A stretch of 63,915 bases of DNA, counting the filler, from Reticulomyxa filosa (Eukaryota; Protista; Foraminifera): NCBI GenBank assembly GCA_000512085.1. It is 19 parts of 19 records of this genome, joined end to end, with 100 filler letters (N's around TTAATTAATTAA, not from the genome) between each part and the next. Parts side by side here need not be neighbours in the genome. Positions count along the whole stretch, not along the records: positions 10,984 to 26,969 come from ASPP01004742.1; 18 more parts are not named here. The stretch is one strand, 5' to 3'. Of this stretch, positions 13,023 through 26,969 are shown in pieces; within the stretch, counting starts at the first letter, position 1, and every line of letters begins with the position of its first letter. The notes under the pieces are model-generated. The model was given only the letters and a program-made list of their open reading frames with translations. It was not told the origin of the DNA and searched no databases. The translations under genes and the position numbers were made by a program.

Positions 13023-13036
13023 CGGATTTATGCATT

Positions 13037-13636
13037 TTAAGGCTTGGAAAACTTATCTTTGAAATTTTTCATCTTATCTTTAAAGGAAGAGATTTGAAAT
13101 AGCTGCCTTGGGTCTTTGGTCAATTTATATGAAGCGTTCGCTCCTTTTTCCATTGTAGCTAGTGATCCAGCTTTGCCAGTAGCAACTTCACTTTTTGACC
13201 AAACTCCAAAAATACAAATTCTCAGGAGCGACTCCTAAACACAAAAGACCCTCGTATTGCCTATGGTATCTGACATGATTAAATTGAAACTTTCCTCCGG
13301 TATCTTAAAATCGCTTCCAATATAATCGGGATTGAATTTAACAATATCAACTCCAACTCTACGATTTCTTGGTAAAAGGTTGTAAAATGCACTAGTGCCC
13401 GCCGAAGGTTCGATAAATTTATAATCGGTTTCATTAGCTTTATCCTTTTTGATAAAGGCCACCAAAAAGTCAAAGCACTTTTCGGCAATTTTTGGCTTTG
13501 TAAAAAATTGATCCAAGCCAACATTGTGAACATCTACCCAACTTGGAATATATTCATTTAATCTTTTCCAAGATTTATTTCTCTCTACAAGAGCTAATTT
13601 ATTATTTAGTGCTAAATTAAACATATTATCTAACAC
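13037..13636 (-). pseudogene. IS passenger relic: N-terminal DNA methyltransferase half fused to a restriction-endonuclease-like C-terminal half
   Basis: DQFFTKP..FIEPSAGTSAF..VGVDI..DF is the SAM-binding half, with no NPPF motif. An alternative frame gives DTGGKFQFNHVRYHRQYEGLLCLGVAP..(fs)GVWSK..YKLTK..SKP*. Confidence 0.55.
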
Positions 13637-14511
13637 AATTTAAAATTAATTTCCCAAACATTTCAGGATTTTCTTTGTTGTTAAGTCTCCAACAAAATTC
13701 ATCCATGTACTCCCTAGGTATTTTTACTTACCCAATGAAACTGGCCCATCATTCCTCTTTTAACAATAGCCCAAAAGCTCTCAATTGTATTAGTGTGAAT
13801 ATCACCAACAACATACTGCTTTGCACTATGCTTGACTGTATGATGAGGCATTAAGCCTTTGAAAGGGATATAACCTTTAAAATCATCAGTCATTAAAACA
13901 GTTTTTGAAACATCAATATTATCTTTCACTATTCCTCTTAAATCAAGAAATCTTAAGCGTTTTTGAATAACTGTTTTAACTTTACCACCTCTTTCGATCA
14001 TACCAACTACACATTCTTTTTTAGTTCCCCTGCCTCTTTTAATTGTTGGTAAATTACCGTCATCGTCTTTATCATTATTTCTCTTTCTTGGCTTTCCTCC
14101 AATGTAAGTCTCGTCCATTTCAACTATAACATTTAAAAGCTCTGCTTGACCGCCTTTCATAGCATTTCTGATTCTCAACATCATTGACCAAACTGTTGGC
14201 TGTCTCATTCCTAAATCTCTTGCTATCTGTGAACTAGACACGCCTTTGCGAGCGTTGAGCATCAACGACATAACCAAAAACCATTTTTGTAAATCAATGT
14301 GAGTATGATGGAAAATTGTTCCAACTGTTACGCTGAAAGATTTTTTACAATTCCAACATTGCAATCTTTCTTTATTCTTTTCTGTGTGTTTGCAAACCTT
14401 ATCAGAATCACAATAACCACATTTAATTTCTCCATTCCATCTAACTCTTTCAAGATGATCTAAACATTTCTTTTGAGTTGAAAACTTCTTGGTTATTTCT
14501 AAGATATTCAT
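13628..14511 (-). CDS. IS1595-family (ISXO2-like) DDE transposase; C-terminus frameshifted at homopolymers
   Basis: Zn-ribbon CGYC..CWNC, VEMDETYIGG, LMTDDF, HTNTIESFW. Restoring 2 nt gives SKKYLGEYMDEFCWRLN..CVR*. Confidence 0.9.
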
Positions 14512-14573
14512 AAATTTTTATTTATAATTTAGCAATTGAATGTAGCTAGATTATAAAAGGGATTAAACTAAAA

Positions 14574-15350
14574 TCAAGCCTTAAAATGTATAAATCCGTC
14601 ATCTGAATTAAGTGCAAGAGCCATTAATGCTTCTTTCTCAGCCAATTCTAATTTTCCTTGATTTCTATACACTTTACAAAGTTTGCTATGAGCAATGGAA
14701 TCATTGGGAGCATTCTTAATAGTCTTTAGTAATGTTTTCTCAGCAAGTCCCCAATTCTCTGCTTCTATATATTTTTCCGCAATATTCATGCTATCTATGC
14801 TTCTAAATAACATACTAACTATCGACCTTTTGCTTCTTGTAGCTGGTTTAACACAAGGTATCGGTATATATTTCCTAGCGGGGTCAACTTCTCCTTCAGT
14901 ACCTTTTACTCTCACCCAATCTCCCTTCTTCAAATTAAACTTTGAATTGACTAAATTTTTGCCCACCACTACTTTATATATTGAATCCAATACAAATCTA
15001 ACATAATCAGTATCGTTATCCTCATATACATCGTCCATATAAACACCCACGGCTATAAAGTGGCCAGGTTCTTCAACATAAAACATCGTTTTTTTCTGCT
15101 CTTTTGGGTCTAAGACTGGTTCTATATTGTGATCCTCTTCTATAAATAAATTAACTTGCACCTTGATCATCTTGCCGCCAAGTCTTTCATCTTCTATTCT
15201 AGTGCAACCATATTTCTCAAAATATGTAATTGGTTCATAATCTTCAAATTGTAACGTCCATTTAGACTCTGCAATAAACTCTGTTTCTACTTTTACTACT
15301 TTAAAAGTAGTAAGCAGTTCTTCTGCTATTAAACGATGTGTTATAATCAT
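14574..15350 (-). CDS. Hypothetical protein with C-terminal TPRs (putative immunity partner of the orphan tip), truncated by IS1595
   Basis: TPR-like WGLAEKTLLKTIKNAPNDSIAHSKLCKVYRNQGKLELAEKEALMALALN. The stop lies inside the IS1595 IR. ATGA overlap with the upstream ORF. Confidence 0.6.
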   Translation of the reverse strand: MIITHRLIAEELLTTFKVVKVETEFIAESKWTLQFEDYEPITYFEKYGCTRIEDERLGGKMIKVQVNLFIEEDHNIEPVLDPKEQKKTMFYVEEPGHFIAVGVYMDDVYEDNDTDYVRFVLDSIYKVVVGKNLVNSKFNLKKGDWVRVKGTEGEVDPARKYIPIPCVKPATRSKRSIVSMLFRSIDSMNIAEKYIEAENWGLAEKTLLKTIKNAPNDSIAHSKLCKVYRNQGKLELAEKEALMALALNSDDGFIHFKA

Positions 15351-15598
15351 CTCTTTTCTCCAAACTTACCATTATAAAATTTTCTAGGTGCAGCCATCAT
15401 AGTCGTCTTTTTGCCATCATACGTAACAACTATTACGCCTTTCTCAGGATCACTCGCAGAAGGAAAATAATAGGCTGCTTGATTCTTGCCATGCACTAAT
15501 CTCATATTTTGAACTGGCGCTTCTTTTATTAGTTGATCTGCTAATGCATCAAATCTCTGTAGTGCTTTTACTTGTTTGACAGGGTCTTGTACGAACAT
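15347..15598 (-). CDS. Putative orphan toxin C-terminal module (83 aa)
   Basis: Small basic ORF directly after the immunity-like gene and coupled to the next gene. It begins MFVQ, like IFVQ just before the main toxin tip. Confidence 0.45.
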   Translation of the reverse strand: MFVQDPVKQVKALQRFDALADQLIKEAPVQNMRLVHGKNQAAYYFPSASDPEKGVIVVTYDGKKTTMMAAPRKFYNGKFGEKR

Positions 15599-15627
15599 AT
15601 CAGTAAGTTCTGACGGTTAACATAAAC

Positions 15628-15652
15628 TTTTAATTTTGTCGCAAAATTAAAA
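15628..15652. terminator. Perfect 11-bp AT-rich hairpin just after the immunity-like gene
   Basis: TTTTAATTTTG-TCG-CAAAATTAAAA. Confidence 0.35.
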
Positions 15653-15659
15653 CCTCCAC

Positions 15660-16115
15660 TTACGTTATGTCTTTAAAATGAAATTGTTTTTTAGCATCGA
15701 TTGGATCCCCTCTTTCACGAATGACAATTTCCCCCAATTTACCTGTATACGGATCAACTTCAAATCCAATCCCTCCACAATAGACAACTATTATATCTAT
15801 TTCTTCCCAATATTTTACTCCGTCAATTGGGAACTTTCCCAATATGGGGTTATCCTTTATACTCACTCTTTTTCCTGTCTCAGGCCTAATTCCATATGGC
15901 TCTTCGACTATCCATAATAAATTACTATCAAAATCAAAACACCAAACTCCCCTTCTTTTATCCAATTCTGGGTGCTTTTGATGCACCTCATCAGAATTAA
16001 ATCCCACAATAACCCTATCTTTCATTAGCACTCCTTCACTTGCTTTGAACGGGAAAGTTATAACTTTATCTCCTACTTGATATTTAGTAGAATATATTTC
16101 TATTTCTTTAATCAT
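15660..16115 (-). CDS. Putative cognate immunity protein (151 aa)
   Basis: Overlaps the toxin stop by 8 bp. Beta-rich pattern GVWCFDFDSNLLWIVE..FEVDPYTGK resembles small proteins found after polymorphic toxins. Confidence 0.6.
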   Translation of the reverse strand: MIKEIEIYSTKYQVGDKVITFPFKASEGVLMKDRVIVGFNSDEVHQKHPELDKRRGVWCFDFDSNLLWIVEEPYGIRPETGKRVSIKDNPILGKFPIDGVKYWEEIDIIVVYCGGIGFEVDPYTGKLGEIVIRERGDPIDAKKQFHFKDIT

Positions 16116-19100
16116 TTTTTATTTCTCCTATTTTTTTGAACCAATTGTTTTCTGCTTTATCTGTGAGATAAAACTGAGTTCCCAAACCATTACCACCAAA
16201 ATTCTCTTCTTTAACAATACCTATCGCTATTGTTACTCCTTTTGGCGGAGTTATCTCTGATAAATGTGTTGGCAGATACGGCAAATCCAACTTATCTTTG
16301 ATTTGATGTAGGGTTAACCCCTTTATATCTTTTTCTAATACTATGAACTGACCATAATATTCAGCATCTTTAGGATTATAAACTCTGAGGAATTTCTGCT
16401 GACCGTCTGCTTCGAATACCGCAACTTTAGTACCTGGCTTAAATGGTGGTTTAAAGTAATGATCTTTTATTTTTGTATTCATAGACTCAGCAACCATTGT
16501 TTCTGTGACATAGACATGTTGCATAAATTCATAACCCGGCAGAGATGTCAGGTCATCAAGTCGCAAATCTTTTGTGAGATGGATATCGCGATATTTATGC
16601 CAATTCTGCACAAATATCTTTTCTTTTACAACTCCCCAATCTTTAAAATCGACATATTGTTTTAATGTTTTAAATGCAGATGCACCCTGCATTCCTATAA
16701 TTGCAACGGCTCCACTTAACGCTACCAACGCTGCCGCATCTTCATATTGCAATCCAGGAAATTGCTTTTGTAAAGTTCTTGCTCCTTTATCAACCCCCAT
16801 CATATAAGCATCAGCAAGAGCCTCCCCAGCAAGAAGGTTGACTCCCTCTCCCATCGCTGTTGCCCTTAACGCATTGGCTGCTCCAGCTGGTCCTGCTACT
16901 ATCGTCTGAAACACTCCACTGATTATATCAGTACCCCATCGCGTAGCCAGCGGATATTCTTCACATAAATCACTATACCAGGATAATACTACCTTTGCTT
17001 TACTACCAGCATCACTTAAAATCTGCGTGCCAGTACTCATATCAATTGCTTGACTTGACCCAAGAATTTCGCTTTCAACGCGATGACTAAATTTTATTAA
17101 TTCTTTCTTCGTTTGTTCTGGTAAATCAGTAGCTGTATTTATTTTCTCTCTATATTCATTAAAGCCTTCAGAAGTAGGCACAGACGCGACGCAAGTTTGC
17201 TCTTCTACAGCCTGGGTATTGGCACAGGATTTTTCAAAATTATCAATGTTGTTTGGTATATATAGCTTTTGCCCAATAAAAATAAGGTCGGGATTCTTAC
17301 TTAATTCAGGATTCGCATTAAGTAAGGTAGCGAGAGTTATACCATTCTTCCTGGCTATATCAGACAAAGTATCATCTGTTGCTACTGTATAAACGTTCTT
17401 TTCAGGTATCTCGGCTGGTCTTTGCACGAAGGTATGATGATTTGCTTTTGGTAAATTTAATTTATCTCCTGCATATATTTTATCAGGATTAGAAATTTGC
17501 TGATTGGCTGTTAATAAATCTTCAAATTTAATGTCTAGTTCTTTTGCTATTGTCCATAAACTATCCCCGGCCTTGACTGTATAGGCACCACTTTGTCCTT
17601 TTTCATCCTTTAGCTCAACGACTTCTTCATTTTGCTCCTCTATGCTTTCAATTTTTTTCTTCGAAGCTGTTTTGTCAGTCCTGGCATTATTTATAGCCCC
17701 GGCATCTTTTTTCCTGTTTAATCCGCTTTCTTTAGATACTTTCTCTTCATCAAGTCTTTCATTGCGTTTAAATGATCCAGGCTTGTTATCACTCACTTGC
17801 TTGCTTTCTTCAAGCTTCCTATGGATATACTCTCCTATCTGCCTTCCAAATCTGTCTCCTGCCTCCCCAGCTACCATATCACTCACAGGTCTTACTATCT
17901 CATGCTGGCGAATATGACTTATCGCACCACTAACCAGATTTGTAAATCGGCTTCTTAATTCATCGTAACCATTAACCTGATTTAATAAACTTCCTATGTG
18001 CTCACAAGATCCTGTCAGTCCGTTTTTATATCCTGATATCTCTTCAGAAAGTTTTACATCATTAAATTTATTACAGTTGTTGTAATCGATTTCCCCATCA
18101 TGCACATACCCTTGAGCGCTGATCTCAGAAAACAATTTACCTCCTTTATCTGCCCCAAACTCAATATTTAATTGTTGTTGCAGCATCTGACCACTCATGG
18201 ATGCTTTCGCTCCAATCATCTCTATCGCCTCTCTTGTACCTTGGCTAATCTTCCCCATAGCTTCATTATTTTTAACTGAGCCCATAACAACCTTTACTCC
18301 AGTATCAATAACCGCTCCCAATCCTATCATATTCCCAAATGCTGTATACCCTCCAACCGCATGCCCTGCCATGCTCGTTGCAAATCCTGTAGCAAATCTC
18401 GTATCGTCACTATCAAATCTATTTTGATATCTTGTCACTATCTTTTCTATCTGACTGAATAATTCTTCCTGAAGTTTGTGATTATTGTTCATAGCATCAG
18501 TTGTAAATATTCTATTTAATACTTTTTGATAGGCTACAATCATCTCATCTATTATTGCCTTTGCTTCTGCCTGTATATCTTCAGCATCGACCAATCTCCT
18601 GGCGCCATTATACAACACTGCTCCGGCAACAGTCGTTGTCACTTGTATTGCACTTACCATCGCCAAAAACTTCTGAGGATTGGTTGCTGCCTCTCGTATA
18701 TTACCTATCTTGTCTGTCATCCATGTATGACTTATTAGTCCAGCGTAATCCAGAAAATGCAATAACCCTGCTGTTGCAAGGGATATTCCTATAGACATAC
18801 CTTTGGAGTTTATATAACTGTTAAAGTCTATCGGTTTGCCAGTCCCTACAGAAATTAATCCTCCTATAATATCTCCAACGCCTTGCATAACCAGTGATGA
18901 CCCAAATATTGCTCCAAACGCCCCTGTACTAGCTGCATTTAACATCCATAATCCGGTGAAAATCGACGCAACTCCTAATACAGCCGCAAATACTGTGCCT
19001 AGCCAATCCTTTTCTTCTGCAAGCCGATATGTCGATATATCAAATATATACACTCCGCTACTGGCAAGTTGCTCAAGCATAAACTTCTGACTAGCAAAGC

Positions 19101-22100
19101 TTATATCCTGATTTAAACTTTCCAGTGCCAACCGGCCAGATGACGATATTAACCCTGTTTTATTTACAGCCTGATAAATAGCTGCTGTTATATTGATATC
19201 CTTGACTATTTCTTCCATAGGCATTTGCCGATGAAGATATATCATCTCCTTACCAGAACTTCGACCTGCTATTTGAATATTTCTCTCCAGCGCTTGCACA
19301 AGCTTTTTATATACCTCAGCCGCACCCAGCAATTGTATTGCAAGATCGTCCTGATAATCTACCAGTTTATTACTTAACAAGAACACCAACTGCCCTTCAA
19401 ATGCCGGAATAATCCATTCTTCCATTCTTCTGATTGCATTCGCTAAATCCTGGCAAAAAGCCTGCTTCACCTGCTGCGCCCTCGCTGCCTGTTTTACTTC
19501 CCAAATATCCGCTCCGTTCTTGACAAGGGATATATAACTTTTGGCATTATATCCATGCCAACCGTATATATCATCAAGCTGTACAGCCTGCTCTAAAAAT
19601 CCTTCCGCCGAAGCCAGAGGGTCAGCTGGGGCATAATTCTCACCACCAAAATTAAATCTTTGCTTAACCAATTCCCAAACATTCGTGATCCACTCAACCC
19701 AACCTACATCACCGCCACTTACAGTATATCCACTTCCTTTCTGCTTATTGGCAATGCTAAAATATTGCCATGCCTTTAACACGAGATAACTTGGATTCTC
19801 CATTAGTGTCCCGGCATTCTTCTTATTATCAAGCAGGGCTTTATATTCAAAAAATTTTGATGCCAATTGCTTTTCAAGATCAATCATAACTTGCTTCAGG
19901 TTGTCTTCATTATCGCTATGACACCTTCCATCTTCTCTAAGCAAATCATCATATTGCTTTAGCCATATCCCCCAATCATCTGTAATCTGCCTAAGCTCGT
20001 ATTGATTATTATATATCTCCCTGTCTGCTACCCATATGAAATATTTACTCCGAAGTTCAGCACTTGATAATGCTTTTTCACTACCCTTGTTATCATTCAA
20101 ATCCGCAAACGATGTATCATATTTTAATCGCTTCAATAAATAACCTTCCTTTCCACGCAAAAATCCCCCTCCTTGTTTGCCAGATAGAGGCTCCTTATTG
20201 ATTGCCTTCTCAAATTCATGCTCTACTCGCTTATATATCTCCTTATACATCGTGTAGCCCTTGCTAGCTGCTATAAAGTGTATAATCTCGTAGGCTTGCT
20301 TGTTTAGATTCTCTGCCTTTGATCCTTCAACAGATATGACTGTCATTATATGCTTTACTGTATTAGGATCTATTGTTCTTATCGTATCAGTTATATCAAT
20401 TACTTCTGCAACCTTGTTTTCACCCTGAACTACCTTCAGGAATACCCTTGAGTTTTCAGCATAAATATAAAAACTGCCTGCTTCTGATTTCTCCAAAGCT
20501 CCAAAAATTATCTTGTATCCGGTAGGAGAATCTACCTCCTTCCTCAACTCAACATATAAATCAAATAATTTATCCCTAATTTTTAACTGCGGGATATGGC
20601 ATAATTTATCTTCTCTTAGTTTTGTTACTTCTTTTTGGTTACGCTCTTCTCTTAAACATTCTATATCTGTATCGCACTTATTTTCATATATCCGTTCCAA
20701 ACTCGCTATTACCTGTGCAGACCCAGGCTCTCCCTGACGCGCTGCTCTGCCATAACCTTGTTCTTCCACTCTCGCACTGCCAGAAACCATCCCCATGATT
20801 ACATGCAATCCTCCATTCTTTCTGACTTCTCCACTAATCTTTAAATCTGTCCCTCGTCCTGCCATATTCGTTGCTATGATTATTTCTCCCACTCGCAGTT
20901 CTCTCTTATTCTTTACGTCATATTCCAAAGTACTATTTGCAGTCCCATAAACAAAAACTTTCTCGGAATCATAGCCAAAAGCCAGAAGTGCTCCCCTTAA
21001 CTTCTCAACCTCAGCTATCGTCTCAACTATGATAAGAGCTGCTCTGCTACCTTCTATCTTCCTCTTGATAACTCCTAATATCTCTTCTTTCCATGCCACC
21101 GATGTCTCTGTTACTATCGCAGGATATTCCTCAAAATCTTTCTCTATAAATGAAGGAATAACGCTCACATCTACTCCATACATTGTCTGTAAAAATTCAT
21201 GATGGTGCTCTAGCCCAAGAGTACCGCTAACCCCATATATATTCCCTTTGTACTTACTAAAAAATCCAAAAAATGACATAAAAATACTAACGACATTCTC
21301 AGGATACATCGTAAGTTGATGTTTTATCTGCAAATACTGATGTAATCCATCACTCCATTGCAATCCATGTTGCAATGCTCCTGTGTTCTCGTAATCAATC
21401 GGTGTTATCGTCCTGAATTGATACCTTGAGCCATAATCTGGCTTGTGAATAATATAATTACTCTTTTCCTGGTAATAATACGAAGAAATCATCGTATCTA
21501 GCCACCTCTGTAACTGTTCACCTGCAAATCCCTCAAGATATCTTGGAATTACAACTTTCCTCTCTCCTCGATTCTCTTCAAATGCAAATAATATACTTTT
21601 TGTAAAATTCCCTATATACCGTTTTATATACTCATCACAATCTCTCCCTACGCTATTTAACTCAACATCATAATCCTTTCTATCTAGCATCTCAGGCACG
21701 AACTCCCTCTCCATGCCTCCAGCAGGATTCTTGAAACCCGGAACTTTCAAATAGCATTGTTCTTCTGTTTGCCATAATTTATCACCAACGGCACTCGCAA
21801 CTCCCCTCATATATACTAAAAGATAACTCAAAACCTCAAACCCAGGTATAAATCCAGATAGTTGCACCTTCATACGGTCAAGATCAATAAACATATTATC
21901 AACCTCGTCAACTATTACTACTTCAAATCCCCTGCCTCTTCTCGTGTCTGACGAAATATCCCTTAAAGTATCTCCTATAAAGTATGTCAATGCTCCATAT
22001 ACAATCTCTCTCTCATAACATTCTTTCCTGCCTTCCTTATGAAGCAACCTTACTTCTTCTCCTGTTATAAGATTTCCTCCAAAATTGATTAAATCACGGT

Positions 22101-24966
22101 TTAATGCACGTAATACTTCAGCTTTCTCTCCAACCTTCACTGCTATACTTTCTATTGTATCTTTTTCTTCTGCCAGGTAAAAATCCCCTATGTTATGCCC
22201 AACCCTTATCCCAAATAAATTATAAAAGTTATAGCTTGATATCGCATCCCTTCTTGCCAGTACGTCAGAACTTGTCACTATATCTACATACTTGCCCTGC
22301 AATACCTTTATAATTGCCAAACACGCTATTATTAGTGACTTGCCTTCTCCAGTTGCTATCTCTGAAAGACCTCCCCCTTCCGATTTATACAACACCAACA
22401 ATGAGAGCAGTTGTGTGAGCCTGGGATGGCCATATCCTCCAAGTATACTCTTATGCGCCGCCTCAGATAATACAGCCATAACTTCTGCTATATTACTATC
22501 AGTCACTCCTGGTATACTCTGTTTCCATCTGATAAAATCTTCTCTCCCCCAATCGCTTAATCCCTTGCCTATTCTCTTTGCTTCATAACCCCTAGTACTA
22601 TCCTCATAACCCTTCCACCCAACTCTAATAGCTTCTGTCTTCTCAAGCTGATGGGTAAAATAATTATTCTTTATGTCACTCCCTATTAATTCTTCTAATC
22701 TTGCATTGCCTCTGTTCTTCCCTTTTAACTCCAGGAGTAACTTCCATATATCCTTACTTATGTAAAAACGATTATCACTGATAACTTGATTAATTTTTTC
22801 TGGCAGGTTCTCCAGAGAAGTCTTCTCCATATATTCTTTAGCACTAGTCCCTCCCCGATCTACCATAGCTGGACTTACTTTATAATCAGTAAGCCTCTCC
22901 AAAATACTAACCAATTTTCCAGTATCAGATACAGTTTTTGTAAATCTATATAAAAAATCTGCTTGCCAGCCAATCTCGCCACTCAAATAACTTATACTCC
23001 TCTTGAGTGCTTTCGCATCAGGCTCAGATAAACCTGTCTGCTTATTCATAATCAGTCGCTGCAGCAAATTCTCATAAAACTTCCCTATAGTAACACCTGT
23101 ACTCAAATCCCTTTTAAAATCCTCTTCTCTTATCCCGTGCTCCTTGATAAAATTTGTTAAGGCTTCTATCTCTCTCATATCAACAGCTTCTAGTAAATTC
23201 ATATACTGTATCAAATCCCATGAGATCCCAGTAATAGACTCTTTAAACTGCGTACATTCTCTTTGTGTTAATAAAAATTTTGCCTTGCCACATTTTATCC
23301 ACGTAACCGCGCTATCTTTACTACCAGCAACACATTCTTTACTTTCCGGACATTTTGATACGATATCAAAACCCGCATTTAGTCCTCTCTCTTCTTCACT
23401 AAATTCTATCCCCCTAAAGAAGGAATCTGCTACCTCTCTCGCATGTTCTAGCAATTCCACATTCCGAGAGTGTAATAGTCCTTTGAAAAATTCACTTGTT
23501 TCTTCCTTAACACTACCATTCCACCCTTCAGTTACTCTCCTGATTATCTCTATTCTCTCAGTCAAGCTCTCCTGTTGATAAAAATCATAAACCTGCTTTT
23601 GTATTTCATATCTTGATGCTTGCTCTTTTGTAAACCCTATCTTATCTAAAATCTTTACTGCCTTCTTATATTGAAGAGGGAAAAGCTTTGGTAAAAGCTT
23701 TATTAATCCTTCAAATATCTTAGTTTGTATATCTGCTGGTATTACAGTTAGCTGACTAAATAAGTTTATACTCATTTCCATCAGTCCTCTATCTTCGGTA
23801 CTCAGATAACTGGCAAAATCTCTCAGTGTTGCCATTGGCACTTCTATACTATGTTGCACTAATCTATTCCCTATAAATAGAGCAATTTTCTTATCTTCTA
23901 TTCTAACAAGAACTTCTATCAGCTCACCTAATAACCCTTTCGTTAAAAACCTGCCTTCCGCTACCAAATCCAGTACAAGTCTGCCAAAATGCTTTTGCTC
24001 GTTCCCATAATATCTAAAAATTTCACCAGTTAACTCATCACACAGCTTTCCTGACTTCTCCAGTAGCCTGTCAGCATAGCTTTCCACAATCCTGATAACA
24101 TTCTCATCAAACCCTGCTGCAAGTAACTTCCCTATTGACTTGCATATAAAAACCCCAGTTGCTTCTCCAACTACACTATCTTCAATTAACCTGTCAAAGT
24201 ACGAAAGGCTATCTATACTGGCTATATACCCATGATAATCTTGGGCTTTAAATAAACCTCTTGCCAAATCATGTGACCTGCTATCATATTCCAACAATGA
24301 CACAAGCCTATCAAAGTACTTGTATGACCATTCTTTTGCTTCGCTAATTTCCTGATTAAATATTCTGAATATTACCTCCCTTATATCATCTTCAACTCTT
24401 TCTTGCTTAACAAAATCAGTCAAAAAATCTATATCACTTTCCGAGCACCCATACTTTACTATCTGCGTACTTAATAACCCTGCTACAATTCTCCCCAATT
24501 TCATTTGGGGATCTTTCAACAATCCCTTAAGATATCCTATCGTCTCTCTATCTAGTTTGTAATTCGTAACACTCGCCAATGCTGATAGCACTGCAAATTG
24601 CGGACCATTAAACAACCATATTAATCCCTCCACTTCAGAAGGACTCCACTTCATTATTTTATATAAATTATCTTTTAACAGATTCTGCTTAAATAGAGAT
24701 TTATTCTTATCTTCCTTCCCTTCTATATAAACATATTTGATTATCTTCTCGTAATATACCTCTGCACTCGGCGGAACTAACCAATCATTCAGCCGACACG
24801 GCTTTTCTGCTACAGACACATCATATGGATCAAACTCTCGATTGGGTGCTAAACATTTATCTATATATCCCGCCTTATATAGCCTTAAGGCTTCTCCCCA
24901 CTCTTCATCTATACCTGTTAATTCATTAAAATAGCGATGGTCAAAGATTAAATCTATTAGATCCAT
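16108..24966 (-). CDS. Giant (2952 aa) SecA-ATPase-domain / hydrophobic-helix / 2xLysM polymorphic toxin with TNT-like C-terminal tip
   Basis: SecA motifs EIATGEGKS, VDIVTSSDVLARRDA, DEVD, WSDGLHQYLQIKH, GVSGT, IATNMAGRGTD, GGLHVI, QGYGRAARQGEPG. Hydrophobic Gly-rich helices at ~19010-18290. LysM YTVKAGDSLWTIAK and YTVATDDTLSDIARKNG. The tip reads RVY..GQF..LP..GIV..FGGNGLGTQFY. Confidence 0.85.
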   Translation of the reverse strand: MDLIDLIFDHRYFNELTGIDEEWGEALRLYKAGYIDKCLAPNREFDPYDVSVAEKPCRLNDWLVPPSAEVYYEKIIKYVYIEGKEDKNKSLFKQNLLKDNLYKIMKWSPSEVEGLIWLFNGPQFAVLSALASVTNYKLDRETIGYLKGLLKDPQMKLGRIVAGLLSTQIVKYGCSESDIDFLTDFVKQERVEDDIREVIFRIFNQEISEAKEWSYKYFDRLVSLLEYDSRSHDLARGLFKAQDYHGYIASIDSLSYFDRLIEDSVVGEATGVFICKSIGKLLAAGFDENVIRIVESYADRLLEKSGKLCDELTGEIFRYYGNEQKHFGRLVLDLVAEGRFLTKGLLGELIEVLVRIEDKKIALFIGNRLVQHSIEVPMATLRDFASYLSTEDRGLMEMSINLFSQLTVIPADIQTKIFEGLIKLLPKLFPLQYKKAVKILDKIGFTKEQASRYEIQKQVYDFYQQESLTERIEIIRRVTEGWNGSVKEETSEFFKGLLHSRNVELLEHAREVADSFFRGIEFSEEERGLNAGFDIVSKCPESKECVAGSKDSAVTWIKCGKAKFLLTQRECTQFKESITGISWDLIQYMNLLEAVDMREIEALTNFIKEHGIREEDFKRDLSTGVTIGKFYENLLQRLIMNKQTGLSEPDAKALKRSISYLSGEIGWQADFLYRFTKTVSDTGKLVSILERLTDYKVSPAMVDRGGTSAKEYMEKTSLENLPEKINQVISDNRFYISKDIWKLLLELKGKNRGNARLEELIGSDIKNNYFTHQLEKTEAIRVGWKGYEDSTRGYEAKRIGKGLSDWGREDFIRWKQSIPGVTDSNIAEVMAVLSEAAHKSILGGYGHPRLTQLLSLLVLYKSEGGGLSEIATGEGKSLIIACLAIIKVLQGKYVDIVTSSDVLARRDAISSYNFYNLFGIRVGHNIGDFYLAEEKDTIESIAVKVGEKAEVLRALNRDLINFGGNLITGEEVRLLHKEGRKECYEREIVYGALTYFIGDTLRDISSDTRRGRGFEVVIVDEVDNMFIDLDRMKVQLSGFIPGFEVLSYLLVYMRGVASAVGDKLWQTEEQCYLKVPGFKNPAGGMEREFVPEMLDRKDYDVELNSVGRDCDEYIKRYIGNFTKSILFAFEENRGERKVVIPRYLEGFAGEQLQRWLDTMISSYYYQEKSNYIIHKPDYGSRYQFRTITPIDYENTGALQHGLQWSDGLHQYLQIKHQLTMYPENVVSIFMSFFGFFSKYKGNIYGVSGTLGLEHHHEFLQTMYGVDVSVIPSFIEKDFEEYPAIVTETSVAWKEEILGVIKRKIEGSRAALIIVETIAEVEKLRGALLAFGYDSEKVFVYGTANSTLEYDVKNKRELRVGEIIIATNMAGRGTDLKISGEVRKNGGLHVIMGMVSGSARVEEQGYGRAARQGEPGSAQVIASLERIYENKCDTDIECLREERNQKEVTKLREDKLCHIPQLKIRDKLFDLYVELRKEVDSPTGYKIIFGALEKSEAGSFYIYAENSRVFLKVVQGENKVAEVIDITDTIRTIDPNTVKHIMTVISVEGSKAENLNKQAYEIIHFIAASKGYTMYKEIYKRVEHEFEKAINKEPLSGKQGGGFLRGKEGYLLKRLKYDTSFADLNDNKGSEKALSSAELRSKYFIWVADREIYNNQYELRQITDDWGIWLKQYDDLLREDGRCHSDNEDNLKQVMIDLEKQLASKFFEYKALLDNKKNAGTLMENPSYLVLKAWQYFSIANKQKGSGYTVSGGDVGWVEWITNVWELVKQRFNFGGENYAPADPLASAEGFLEQAVQLDDIYGWHGYNAKSYISLVKNGADIWEVKQAARAQQVKQAFCQDLANAIRRMEEWIIPAFEGQLVFLLSNKLVDYQDDLAIQLLGAAEVYKKLVQALERNIQIAGRSSGKEMIYLHRQMPMEEIVKDINITAAIYQAVNKTGLISSSGRLALESLNQDISFASQKFMLEQLASSGVYIFDISTYRLAEEKDWLGTVFAAVLGVASIFTGLWMLNAASTGAFGAIFGSSLVMQGVGDIIGGLISVGTGKPIDFNSYINSKGMSIGISLATAGLLHFLDYAGLISHTWMTDKIGNIREAATNPQKFLAMVSAIQVTTTVAGAVLYNGARRLVDAEDIQAEAKAIIDEMIVAYQKVLNRIFTTDAMNNNHKLQEELFSQIEKIVTRYQNRFDSDDTRFATGFATSMAGHAVGGYTAFGNMIGLGAVIDTGVKVVMGSVKNNEAMGKISQGTREAIEMIGAKASMSGQMLQQQLNIEFGADKGGKLFSEISAQGYVHDGEIDYNNCNKFNDVKLSEEISGYKNGLTGSCEHIGSLLNQVNGYDELRSRFTNLVSGAISHIRQHEIVRPVSDMVAGEAGDRFGRQIGEYIHRKLEESKQVSDNKPGSFKRNERLDEEKVSKESGLNRKKDAGAINNARTDKTASKKKIESIEEQNEEVVELKDEKGQSGAYTVKAGDSLWTIAKELDIKFEDLLTANQQISNPDKIYAGDKLNLPKANHHTFVQRPAEIPEKNVYTVATDDTLSDIARKNGITLATLLNANPELSKNPDLIFIGQKLYIPNNIDNFEKSCANTQAVEEQTCVASVPTSEGFNEYREKINTATDLPEQTKKELIKFSHRVESEILGSSQAIDMSTGTQILSDAGSKAKVVLSWYSDLCEEYPLATRWGTDIISGVFQTIVAGPAGAANALRATAMGEGVNLLAGEALADAYMMGVDKGARTLQKQFPGLQYEDAAALVALSGAVAIIGMQGASAFKTLKQYVDFKDWGVVKEKIFVQNWHKYRDIHLTKDLRLDDLTSLPGYEFMQHVYVTETMVAESMNTKIKDHYFKPPFKPGTKVAVFEADGQQKFLRVYNPKDAEYYGQFIVLEKDIKGLTLHQIKDKLDLPYLPTHLSEITPPKGVTIAIGIVKEENFGGNGLGTQFYLTDKAENNWFKKIGEIKND

Positions 24967-24981
24967 GATTCATAATTCTTA

Positions 24982-25284
24982 TTATAACTCTTCGTGATAC
25001 TGAGCTTGCTCTTGATTACCTTCTAAAAGGGTAAAATCATCAACTACCAACTCTTCTCCTGCTACTTCCTGTGCTGCCTTTTGTTCTGCGATCCTCTTTG
25101 CTTCAGCTTCCTCTGCTGCCTTTTGTTCTGCGATCTTCCTTGCTTCAGCTTCCTGTGCTGCTTTTTGTTCTGCGACCTTCCTTGCTTCAGCCTCAATTAT
25201 AATGCCAGGTACAAGTGGCGGGCTAGGCTTAGAATCCGATATTACATTCCATTTCTTTAACAAACCTTTCAATCCTCTTGGCAT
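24982..25284 (-). CDS. Small protein with Ala/Glu/Lys helical repeats, 15 bp upstream of the giant toxin gene
   Basis: Three copies of a ~42-bp unit encoding EAEARK(V/I)AEQKAA(Q/E). Confidence 0.6.
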   Translation of the reverse strand: MPRGLKGLLKKWNVISDSKPSPPLVPGIIIEAEARKVAEQKAAQEAEARKIAEQKAAEEAEAKRIAEQKAAQEVAGEELVVDDFTLLEGNQEQAQYHEEL

Positions 25285-25737: not shown

Positions 25738-26969
25738 TTAGATTACCTTCAATTCATACTTAAGGTAATAGAGCTTAAGCTTTCTGTCGGCTCTTTTTGT
25801 CATTTTTCCATATCCAACCTCCTCCTCTTCTGCAAATTCCCTTATCTTTGTCTCACTTAATCCATCTACCCATTTATAATACTTTTCTAGAAGCCCCTCT
25901 TCTTTCATCCTGTTGCTCAATCTTTCTTCCTCTTCTTCTTCTCTAGCTTTTTTCTTTTCAAGATAAACCTCAAAAGCTATCTCATCGACACTTTTATTCT
26001 CTTCCATCGCCTTCTCCATGTAATGGAGCTTAAAAACATCTTCTCTTATATCGTCATACTCTCCTGCCATTTTATACTTCTTTCTTATTTCATCTTTATC
26101 TTCTTCTTTTAATCCCCTATACCATTGCCAATAATTACCTGCTTCCATCGTGTCAACTATCCTGCATAACTCAATCGATATCTTCTTCTTTTCTTCTCTT
26201 TTTCTCCTCATTAATTCCAGGGTTGCTAGTTCTTGTTTGCTTTTATAGCTTGACTCTATCCACATCTCTCCCTTCCTTAGTGTGCCTATCAATACTTTCA
26301 AAGGATCGTTGTATTTCTTATAATGCTCTTTATTATGTTTTATTCCATATGCAAAGTGTTCTATCGATTCCTTAACAACGCTCGCTGGTAATACATTCAG
26401 TTTGTACAAACCCACAAGATGATGCTCTTTAAACTGCCATTCTTCCAACAAATGGATGTTAATCGTTTTCCATTCTTCTGGTAAGTCTTCAAATTTAAGT
26501 ATCGAGGAACTTATCACTTTTTTTGATTCACTTTTCTGAATGTCATTTTTTATCTCATTTTCTTTTCCTTGATTTATTTCCTCTTTTTTTTCTCCCTCTC
26601 TCTGCACTCTCTCCCTCTTAAGAATATTATTATTATAATAAGGAAGCGATTTTTAATAAAAATTTATAAAACTCACTATCAATTTTATATTGAGTAAAAG
26701 TATTATTTCTCCCAGTATTAAAATTAACTGTAAAAAGAAGTTTTTTTCTCTTCATTCTCTTGATAGATTGCTTTAATGAATCTAAAGGACAATTCAGGAA
26801 TATAGCCATGTCTGGCAATCTAATCCTATCTGTTTGTAAATTTTTTTTATCAATAATTAATGAAGATAAATAAGTAAAAATTTTTAGAGTCAAACCTCTT
26901 AATTTATAGCTAGCAAATTTATCAATGGTTTGTCCCTGTCTGTCCCCCACAAAAGAGGTGGTTTGTCCC
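25738..26969 (-). CDS. Putative plasmid replication/wHTH protein. Probably one gene split by a frameshift near 26650; 5' truncated
   Basis: HTH-like IRLPDMAIFLNCPLDSLKQSIKRMKRKKLL. A frame shift gives KSLPYYNNNILKRERVQREG, which joins ORF 25738-26607 (VKESIEHFAYG..DPLKVLIGTLRKG..W). TGGTTTGTCCC is repeated near the contig end. Confidence 0.45.

Follow-up and report, generated by a model that had tools for sequence, protein, structure and literature searches.

A SecA-related giant protein as the trunk of a candidate polymorphic toxin locus on a bacterial contig of the Reticulomyxa filosa assembly

The window, a stretch of 63,915 nucleotides from the Reticulomyxa filosa assembly (GCA_000512085.1), is a chain of contigs with N44-spacer-N44 joints. 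A 15,986-bp contig (positions 10984-26969), flanked by spacers on both sides, was bacterial as evidenced by an intron-free operon, four transposase-type genes and a rep-like gene. The cassette described here sits on this contig, the one bacterial contig examined. Other contigs of the window carried eukaryotic genes (VPS13, Alba, SNARE, P450, WD40 and Rad51-like). Two ORFs of 289 and 105 aa (25738-26950, minus strand) resemble a gene beside ParA on symbiont plasmids and are likely a replication gene. The best plasmid match of the 289-aa ORF adjoins ParA on a plasmid of Ca. Bandiella. A Midichloriaceae symbiont of Reticulomyxa is described in PMC10847448. Based on the bacterial contig, this reported symbiont and the match beside ParA, the contig is probably a piece of a Rickettsiales symbiont plasmid that was assembled together with the host. 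Transfer of the cassette into the protist nucleus was unsupported, as the contig is without introns, IS-rich and bounded by spacers.

The cassette comprised five co-oriented ORFs on the minus strand. All were located where the sequence-only reading had placed them, including the 8-bp overlap of the 2952-aa and 151-aa genes and the ATGA overlap of the 83-aa and 258-aa genes. The first ORF (24982-25284) encodes a low-complexity helical protein of 100 aa and stands where relatives have a coiled-coil accessory gene upstream of their giant gene. It has an acidic tail with an EL end, as have several relatives, and no significant homolog was found among the ORFs of the compared loci. The second gene (16108-24966) is complete and encodes a putative polymorphic toxin of 2952 aa, assigned by ORF, Pfam and family searches. 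A database protein filed under Reticulomyxa filosa is 99.97% identical to it over aa 3-2952 and has the 100-aa ORF fused in front. The 151-aa gene (15660-16115) encodes a likely cognate immunity protein of no named family, with homologs directly behind the same tip family.

An 83-aa ORF (15347-15598) starts 61 bp past the end of the 151-aa gene and appears to be the truncated remnant of an orphan toxin tip. It shared 24% identity with the C-terminus of the giant protein in locus L001 and 40% with an ORF behind a broken giant gene in locus L202, and the likeness begins upstream of its ATG. The last gene (14574-15350) encodes a protein of 258 aa, which shared 27% (L001) and 48% (L202) identity with the genes that follow the matching tips. 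Based on these alignments the two genes are likely an orphan tip and its immunity gene. The 258-aa gene had earlier been read as a TPR gene; a TPR-like tail is present, below the Pfam cut-off, but the main part of the protein (aa 1-170) is an immunity-type domain. Both homologs found, in L001 and L202, are without the tail. The orphan tip was considered as kin of the main tip and found to be unrelated (HHalign probability 0.4). A 24-bp inverted repeat of IS1595 type (14575-14598 and 13023-13046) overlaps the end of the 258-aa gene, where an IS1595-type element may have cut a longer array.

The 2952-aa protein begins with a region (aa 1-800, 22567-24966, minus strand as are all regions below) comprised of a short Cys-pair cap and a long, likely helical part, as judged by alignment and profiles. 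Neither a signal-like segment nor a Pfam family was found in aa 1-800. A SecA-derived motor follows (aa ~801-1730, 19777-22566), defined by a model, structural alignment and motif counts. SecA ATPase motifs had been read at about aa 860-1410 and are present, but the fold reaches beyond this stretch to about aa 1720-1730. Gly/Ala-rich hydrophobic helices (aa ~1985-2120, 18607-19014) are predicted to be membrane-inserting from hydropathy and an alignment of 20 relatives. Such helices had been read from about aa 1985, and each of the 20 relatives in the alignment has a stretch corresponding to the hydrophobic segment at aa 1991-2009. The two LysM domains noticed earlier correspond to two Pfam PF01476 stretches (aa ~2462-2570, 17257-17583) and may target the protein to peptidoglycan. 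LysM is optional in the family, being present in 8 of 17 relatives scanned and absent from 9. The protein ends in a toxin tip (aa 2813-2952, 16111-16530), a predicted NAD(P)+ glycohydrolase of the Tne2/Tse6/Rhs1-CT/TNT fold, assigned by a fold model and the conserved residues R2861 and Q2931. The Pfam matches of the whole protein were SecA_DEAD (E 3.6e-27), P-loop_SecA (2.3e-10) and the two LysM stretches (4.9e-27). No Pfam or PDB relative was found for the hydrophobic region or the orphan tip. No TPS/hemagglutinin, RHS, PAAR, LXG or MuF domain was found in the trunk, using Pfam and NCBIfam for the 2952-aa protein and Pfam for 17 relatives. CdiA domains were likewise absent by Pfam. The sequence-only reading had seen no T5SS, T6SS, T7SS, Rhs or MuF trunk motifs. 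An SseC translocator match was seen in one relative only (P0007), weak and below the cut-off (E 1.3e-4), and in none of the other 16.

A search with aa 800-1500 returned 75 proteins. Named entries from Rickettsiales and gammaproteobacteria are among the best 28, most of which aligned over about aa 1-2420. Relatives with this common trunk (aa 1-2420) come from Rickettsiales and Coxiellaceae-like bacteria. Two alignment scans gave 75 and 76 loci, unlike a single-sequence locus scan, which gave no matches. Profiling the trunk as eight segments picked out a core set in which all main segments are present. A quick tree built from 73 SecA-domain rows placed this core set in a clade of 35 (SH-aLRT 100). 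The clade is separate from ordinary SecA and is nested in a broader assemblage of SecA-like giants, whose sources are Wolbachia, Cardinium, other symbionts, ciliates and animals.

Matches to the hydrophobic trunk region came from 16 of 400 Rickettsiales genomes, from 7 of the 22 genomes in a small gammaproteobacterial order and from 3 of 401 genomes in an alphaproteobacterial sample; these counts describe samples and are no proof of absence elsewhere. Genome G322 was left out of the Rickettsiales scoring, for this region and for the 151-aa profile alike. All matching genomes (16, 7 and 3) were 2.3 Mb or smaller, and the named genomes with the family are those of symbionts. The bacteria carrying SecA-motor giants are kin of known protist symbionts. 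In a phage collection only matches at the level of ordinary SecA were found. A complete 22.9-kb plasmid of Ca. Bandiella woodruffii contains two accessory genes, the giant gene, two neighbours, a relaxase, a coupling protein and ParA, and the whole module fills about half of it. In many relatives the operon opens with, or has close to its start, a DUF1826-like gene with an HxD...H pattern (16 ORF matches, 7 of them seeds). This gene occurs in 22% of cluster members and is absent from the cassette studied here.

The last 140 aa of the 2952-aa protein had 736 relatives at E<=0.001. Among 53 of these that were scanned, several have the match at the C-terminus of an Rhs, CdiA-type, LXG or PT-TG carrier. 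The tip model had a pLDDT of 97.1. Its closest folds were Tne2 (Z 11.2, rmsd 2.4, 106 residues), Rhs1-CT (Z 9.5) and Tse6 (Z 8.8), followed by two fungal NADases (Z 5.8) and TNT (Z 4.8), with other folds at 4.2 or below. The six best of 48,161 chains compared with the model were all NADases. Foldseek ranked the same proteins first, but with no match at E<=0.001. No Pfam match above the cut-off was found for the tip, and the TNT profile matched weakly in 15 of 95 tip relatives (best E 7.5e-5). R2861 was kept in 92 of 94 tip rows and Q2931 in 93 of 94. The alignment of Q2931 and a GGxxQ-type motif with Tne2 was weak (E 1.4). A conserved, essential glutamine in these NADases is described in PMC10539506. 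By its predicted fold, the tip is very probably an NADase that destroys NAD(P)+. With Tne2, Tse6 (Tne1), Serratia Rhs1-CT and TNT it has the fold in common, at only 10-17% identity, and its activity is a prediction.

The 151-aa protein had no match in Pfam, NCBIfam or the PDB. A profile built from five sequences gave 15 matches in 10 of the 400 Rickettsiales genomes. Ten matches were near-full, two of which (both in genome G325) are among the five sequences of the profile. Seven of the ten were directly behind the tip family, one was in tandem behind such a pair and two were solitary. The five fragmentary or weak matches were without a tip. The 151-aa protein is predicted, with the same high confidence as the activity of the tip, to block the NADase.

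To compare tips, 28 loci with a visible 3' end and 14 further proteins were used; the 28 include loci that are truncated or fall slightly outside the core clade. The 42 tips fell into 24 clusters. The next ORF was co-oriented and lay -32 to +66 bp from the giant gene at all 28 loci. Identity to the 2952-aa protein was 37-52% in the motor (core members spanning the motor). Over the final 150 aa it was for the most part 10-28%, rising to 29-34% where the tip was common to both. Most of the 87 sequences scanned, and most tips, were without a Pfam family. Those named were AHH, WHH/colicin DNase, colicin D, colicin E3-type (Cytotoxic) and CdiA RNase (RNAse_A_bac) among tips, and SMI1/KNR4, Imm11 and DUFs among neighbours. 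SMI1/KNR4 genes were directly behind WHH-type tips at three of three loci. Lipobox-type or membrane-anchored genes were seen, reading by eye, behind tips with a lipase motif. An invariant C-terminus with no dedicated downstream gene had been named in advance as one outcome that would refute a toxin locus. The comparison gave a conserved trunk with tips and downstream genes that vary together.

An exchange of tips was visible in one pair of loci. L008 and L079 were 99.7% identical over 2,497 aa and then only about 20%, and their next genes differ. The tip and neighbour of L079 shared 99% DNA identity with a cassette that G005, the genome to which L008 belongs, has on a hemagglutinin-repeat/LysM carrier. 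It follows that tips move between the SecA trunk and a CdiA-like trunk. The junctions of the two cassettes have about 2 bases in common, and an assembly chimera at L079 was considered unlikely on this account. Orphan arrays were present behind the giant genes of three genomes (G325, G304 and G004); the array of G004 has roughly eight pairs of tip and neighbour. Counted against the toxin reading were two loci with no evident toxin at the end of the giant (L082 and L187) and one where a TPR gene follows it (L027). Truncated and IS-interrupted copies of the giant gene were common. The polymorphic toxin layout claimed in the sequence-only reading was recovered in each part: a conserved trunk, tips common to other carriers, a co-varying neighbour and orphan cassettes. 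From the conserved trunk, the exchange of tips, the pairing of tips with neighbours and the orphan arrays, the locus is almost certainly of a kind that forms a working toxin/immunity system.

The same layout of trunk, variable tip, immunity gene and orphan array characterizes the polymorphic toxin systems CDI/CdiA, Rhs, LXG and MuF, as set out in PMC3482391. The tip and immunity families AHH, WHH, colicin D, RNAse_A_bac, SMI1/KNR4 and Imm11 are held in common with them. Unlike the CDI, Rhs, LXG and MuF trunks, the SecA-giant trunk consists of a SecA-derived ATPase and hydrophobic helices with none of those Pfam domains. In the text of PMC3482391 consulted, SecA is mentioned once, for host-directed effectors of Amoebophilus. 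SecA-like ATPases in giant secreted toxins of actinobacteria, predicted to aid secretion, are described in PMC8195603, and a SecA-like domain in a module of Wolbachia phage WO in PMC5062602. Together with the giants of Omnitrophota (bioRxiv 10.1101/2023.11.21.568195) these likewise have, as described, a divergent SecA DEAD motor next to membrane helices; a swappable tip with cognate immunity does not figure in the descriptions consulted. Toxin loci in a Bodo symbiont are reported in PMC8163844, and the rickettsial CRCT/CRCA modules of toxin and antidote on large carriers in PMC9111745. Two LysM toxins with different tips are noted for a Peranema symbiont in PMC11077975. The genome of this symbiont contained three large LysM ORFs, with the SecA-giant trunk only in P0012. 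The word SecA is absent from the main text and five text supplements of that paper, and P0012 may be drawn in its Fig. S9. As far as the consulted parts of these sources go, neither the CRCT/CRCA modules nor the 'LysM-like' toxins define the SecA trunk as a family. No description of a SecA-trunk toxin/immunity family was found in open-access full text, only these partial precedents. The assignment to a polymorphic toxin system of CDI/Rhs-like layout, outside those trunk families and with a trunk class not found described, is strongly supported.

Bacteria are probably the targets. Tips of colicin D, colicin E3 and CdiA RNase type, the envelope location of immunity to lipase-motif tips, immunity genes that stand alone (2 of the 10 near-full matches), long orphan arrays, and the presence of the tip family on Rhs, CdiA and LXG carriers elsewhere all fit competition between bacteria. 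They speak against the view that the tips hit the eukaryotic host or serve addiction of host or plasmid, with immunity only shielding the producer and the SecA part acting on membranes or organelles of the host. That view is improbable, with several points in its favor: eukaryotic cells, too, are acted on by NADases such as TNT (PMC10539506), the tree puts the clade among SecA-like giants from Wolbachia, Cardinium, further symbionts and eukaryotes, the whole module takes up about half of a 22.9-kb plasmid, addiction is proposed for other symbiont toxin loci in PMC8163844, and an HPD J-domain found in some members could recruit Hsp70 of the host.

The motor region was modelled over aa 800-1990 from 47 sequences (pLDDT 84.5). 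The model aligned with residues 31-775 of B. subtilis SecA over 615 residues (rmsd 4.4, Z 39.9), and included both nucleotide-binding domains, the clamp region, the long scaffold helix and a finger-like helical hairpin. SecA entries (Z up to 40.6) scored above DEAD-box helicases (Z 27), and the longest alignments (599-615 residues) were to SecY-bound SecA. The motor has the fold of SecA and SecA2 in common from the first nucleotide-binding domain to the finger region, with the Walker A, DExD and arginine-finger motifs. Unlike these it is embedded in a toxin of about 3,000 aa, at about 22% identity, with paired cysteines and no secY beside it; no SecY-like partner was found in the SecA-giant loci. 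Divergent SecA in the Omnitrophota giants is said to be without scaffold and wing (bioRxiv 10.1101/2023.11.21.568195). The present model appears to keep these at least in part, unlike the Omnitrophota giants as that preprint describes them.

Among the 35 core rows GEGK[S/T] was kept in 34 of 34, DExD in 35 of 35 and QxxGRxxRxG in 27 of 34. The deviation of motif VI in the remaining 7 of 34 was counted against the mechanism proposed below. The dN/dS of the motor in four pairs was 0.13, 0.15, 0.18 and 0.27, the last on very few changes. A separate ordinary SecA was present in all four genomes checked. With its motifs kept, its dN/dS low and an ordinary SecA elsewhere in the genome, the motor is maintained and distinct from housekeeping SecA. 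A housekeeping role was rejected on the separate canonical copy in 4 of 4 genomes, on the motor's own clade and on an NCBIfam score of 168 bits against a cut-off of 862. Fold, motifs and selection make it likely, with good confidence, that the SecA part is an active ATPase which grips polypeptide. Alternatively it could be a structural or leftover stalk, with delivery by another route that takes no ATP from it. The same tip does ride a hemagglutinin trunk without an ATPase, and truncated and IS-interrupted copies are frequent, but no part of the trunk is as well conserved as the motor, whose catalytic motifs are kept under purifying selection, and the stalk reading is very improbable.

The location of the motor was approached through the members of gammaproteobacterial type. 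IAT_beta (PF11924) matched above the cut-off, as a partial match, in four of four aligned N-termini of this type, covering only about 90-115 of 279 profile positions, and no solved structural relative of the barrel region was found. In five of five members shown a hydrophobic N-terminal segment was followed by an HPD J-domain. The order in this type is hydrophobic segment, partial barrel match and J-domain, with the SecA motor C-terminal to the barrel. In type Ve proteins the part after the barrel is outside the cell. Neither a signal-like segment nor a barrel was seen in the Rickettsiales members, the 2952-aa protein included. Two cysteine pairs in the motor region were scored in 35 rows, with kinship ignored. 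Both, neither or one of the cysteines were present in 26, 9 and 0 rows for one pair and in 20, 15 and 0 for the other. The cysteines of a pair are thus present or absent together in these rows, as those of disulfides would be. Disulfides would be reduced in the cytosol of the host, and this was counted against a motor outside the producer.

Rickettsiales toxin/antidote modules have no characterised route in the accounts consulted: CdiB is lacking, T6SS is rare and T4SS is incomplete in some (PMC11077975, PMC10847448). In the proposed mechanism the conserved trunk and its SecA-derived ATPase would carry the exchangeable tip, with the immunity gene and the orphan pair following. The ATPase would work outside the producing symbiont, with host ATP as fuel, and thread its own tip toward a neighbouring bacterium. 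Location outside the producer is favored by the barrel-bearing subclade, the paired cysteines and the small symbiont genomes, and it means that ATP is available only from the host cell. It is slightly more likely than not that the motor acts on the C-terminal part of its own protein, which would pass through the hydrophobic helices or along them. Passage of the tip by the motor after export, not during it, is somewhat less than evenly likely overall. The whole explanation, a toxin locus whose motor lies outside the symbiont and threads its own tip toward a neighbouring bacterium on host ATP, has an even chance. In its fullest form, a self-contained outward SecA injector fuelled by host ATP that pushes swappable toxins into rival symbionts, some helped by host Hsp70 through the J-domain, it is less likely than not.

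Self-export is a strong rival to the outward motor. The SecA part would then be a private export motor in the cytoplasm of the producer, working with the producer's own SecYEG or with the membrane helices of the protein, like an accessory SecA2. The whole SecA architecture is kept and its longest alignments were to SecA bound to SecY, cytoplasmic ATP is plentiful, and the Rickettsiales members have no signal-like segment. PMC10847448 reports incomplete type IV secretion both for Bandiella and for the Midichloriaceae symbiont of Reticulomyxa, and Rickettsiales are without CdiB according to PMC11077975. An analogous self-export is proposed for the giant proteins of Omnitrophota and actinobacteria (bioRxiv 10.1101/2023.11.21.568195; PMC8195603). 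The barrel-bearing members already have a signal-like segment, however, and their motor is C-terminal to the barrel, and paired cysteines lie inside the motor. An export motor in the producer is rather unlikely on balance.

If the outward motor is true, the injector would form a delivery class open only to bacteria inside other cells, and the motor would account for SecA-like giants that so far lack an explanation, in Wolbachia, Cardinium, ciliates and animals. The family supplies a conserved carrier, natural tip swaps, a mobilisable 23-kb plasmid with the whole module, and many unnamed tips paired with immunity genes. With a cargo that has a simple readout, the role of SecA-like domains in giant proteins of symbionts and eukaryotes becomes testable. 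Giants bearing ankyrin and OTU domains also have the SecA-like domain, as do eukaryotes in which no Pfam toxin tip accompanies it; the domain may therefore have an earlier function that has nothing to do with delivering tips.

The whole window is a chain of contigs separated by the spacer N44-TTAATTAATTAA-N44, and genes on either side of a spacer are not biological neighbours. Public gene models treat bacterial genes of this region (window 14574-25284) as eukaryotic. Model P0001 fused the 100-aa ORF and the giant toxin gene, both bacterial, into one eukaryote-style gene, and P0235 (326 aa) is likely a similar fusion of the bacterial 83-aa and 258-aa ORFs. Some database SecA-like proteins labelled as eukaryotic may be symbiont contamination. 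Many metagenome contigs of approximately 4 kb (L099, L102, L104, L107, L109-L113 and similar) each carried a single SecA-like ORF of approximately 900 aa and are possibly gene-sized chromosomes of ciliates. An IS1595-type element with 24-bp inverted repeats at both ends was located at 13023-14598 of the window. Its 133-aa passenger ORF (13235-13636) had a methyltransferase-like motif by eye and no Pfam match.

A DUF1826-like gene was conserved at or near the operon start in relatives (L008:1915-2751 and 15 further ORF hits). It encodes a 2-oxoglutarate oxygenase-like HxD...H pattern, and its product could modify the toxin. In one locus an FG-GAP repeat gene was inserted between the accessory genes (L077:3263-5341). 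The upstream coiled-coil gene was present in three tandem copies at L187:7807-9968.

In the subgroup with a putative barrel (L010, L081, P0020 and P0021) DEVD was replaced by DEED and motif VI was altered. The tips contained a Cys motif suggestive of papain-like enzymes, with no Pfam match, and their neighbours were membrane-anchored. About eight orphan tip/neighbour pairs were arrayed downstream of a split giant gene at L182:8577-20000, most of the tips having no Pfam family.

SecA-like giants were also found on plasmids. The Ca. Megaera plasmid CP113870.1 (L194) encoded two in tandem, of about 5,200 and 1,590 aa, both outside the core clade and with no small coupled gene downstream. NZ_CP110822.1 (L193) is a mobilisable plasmid of 22.9 kb, about half of which is toxin operon, similar to colicin plasmids. 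Its tip had a lipase motif and was followed by two lipobox-type genes.
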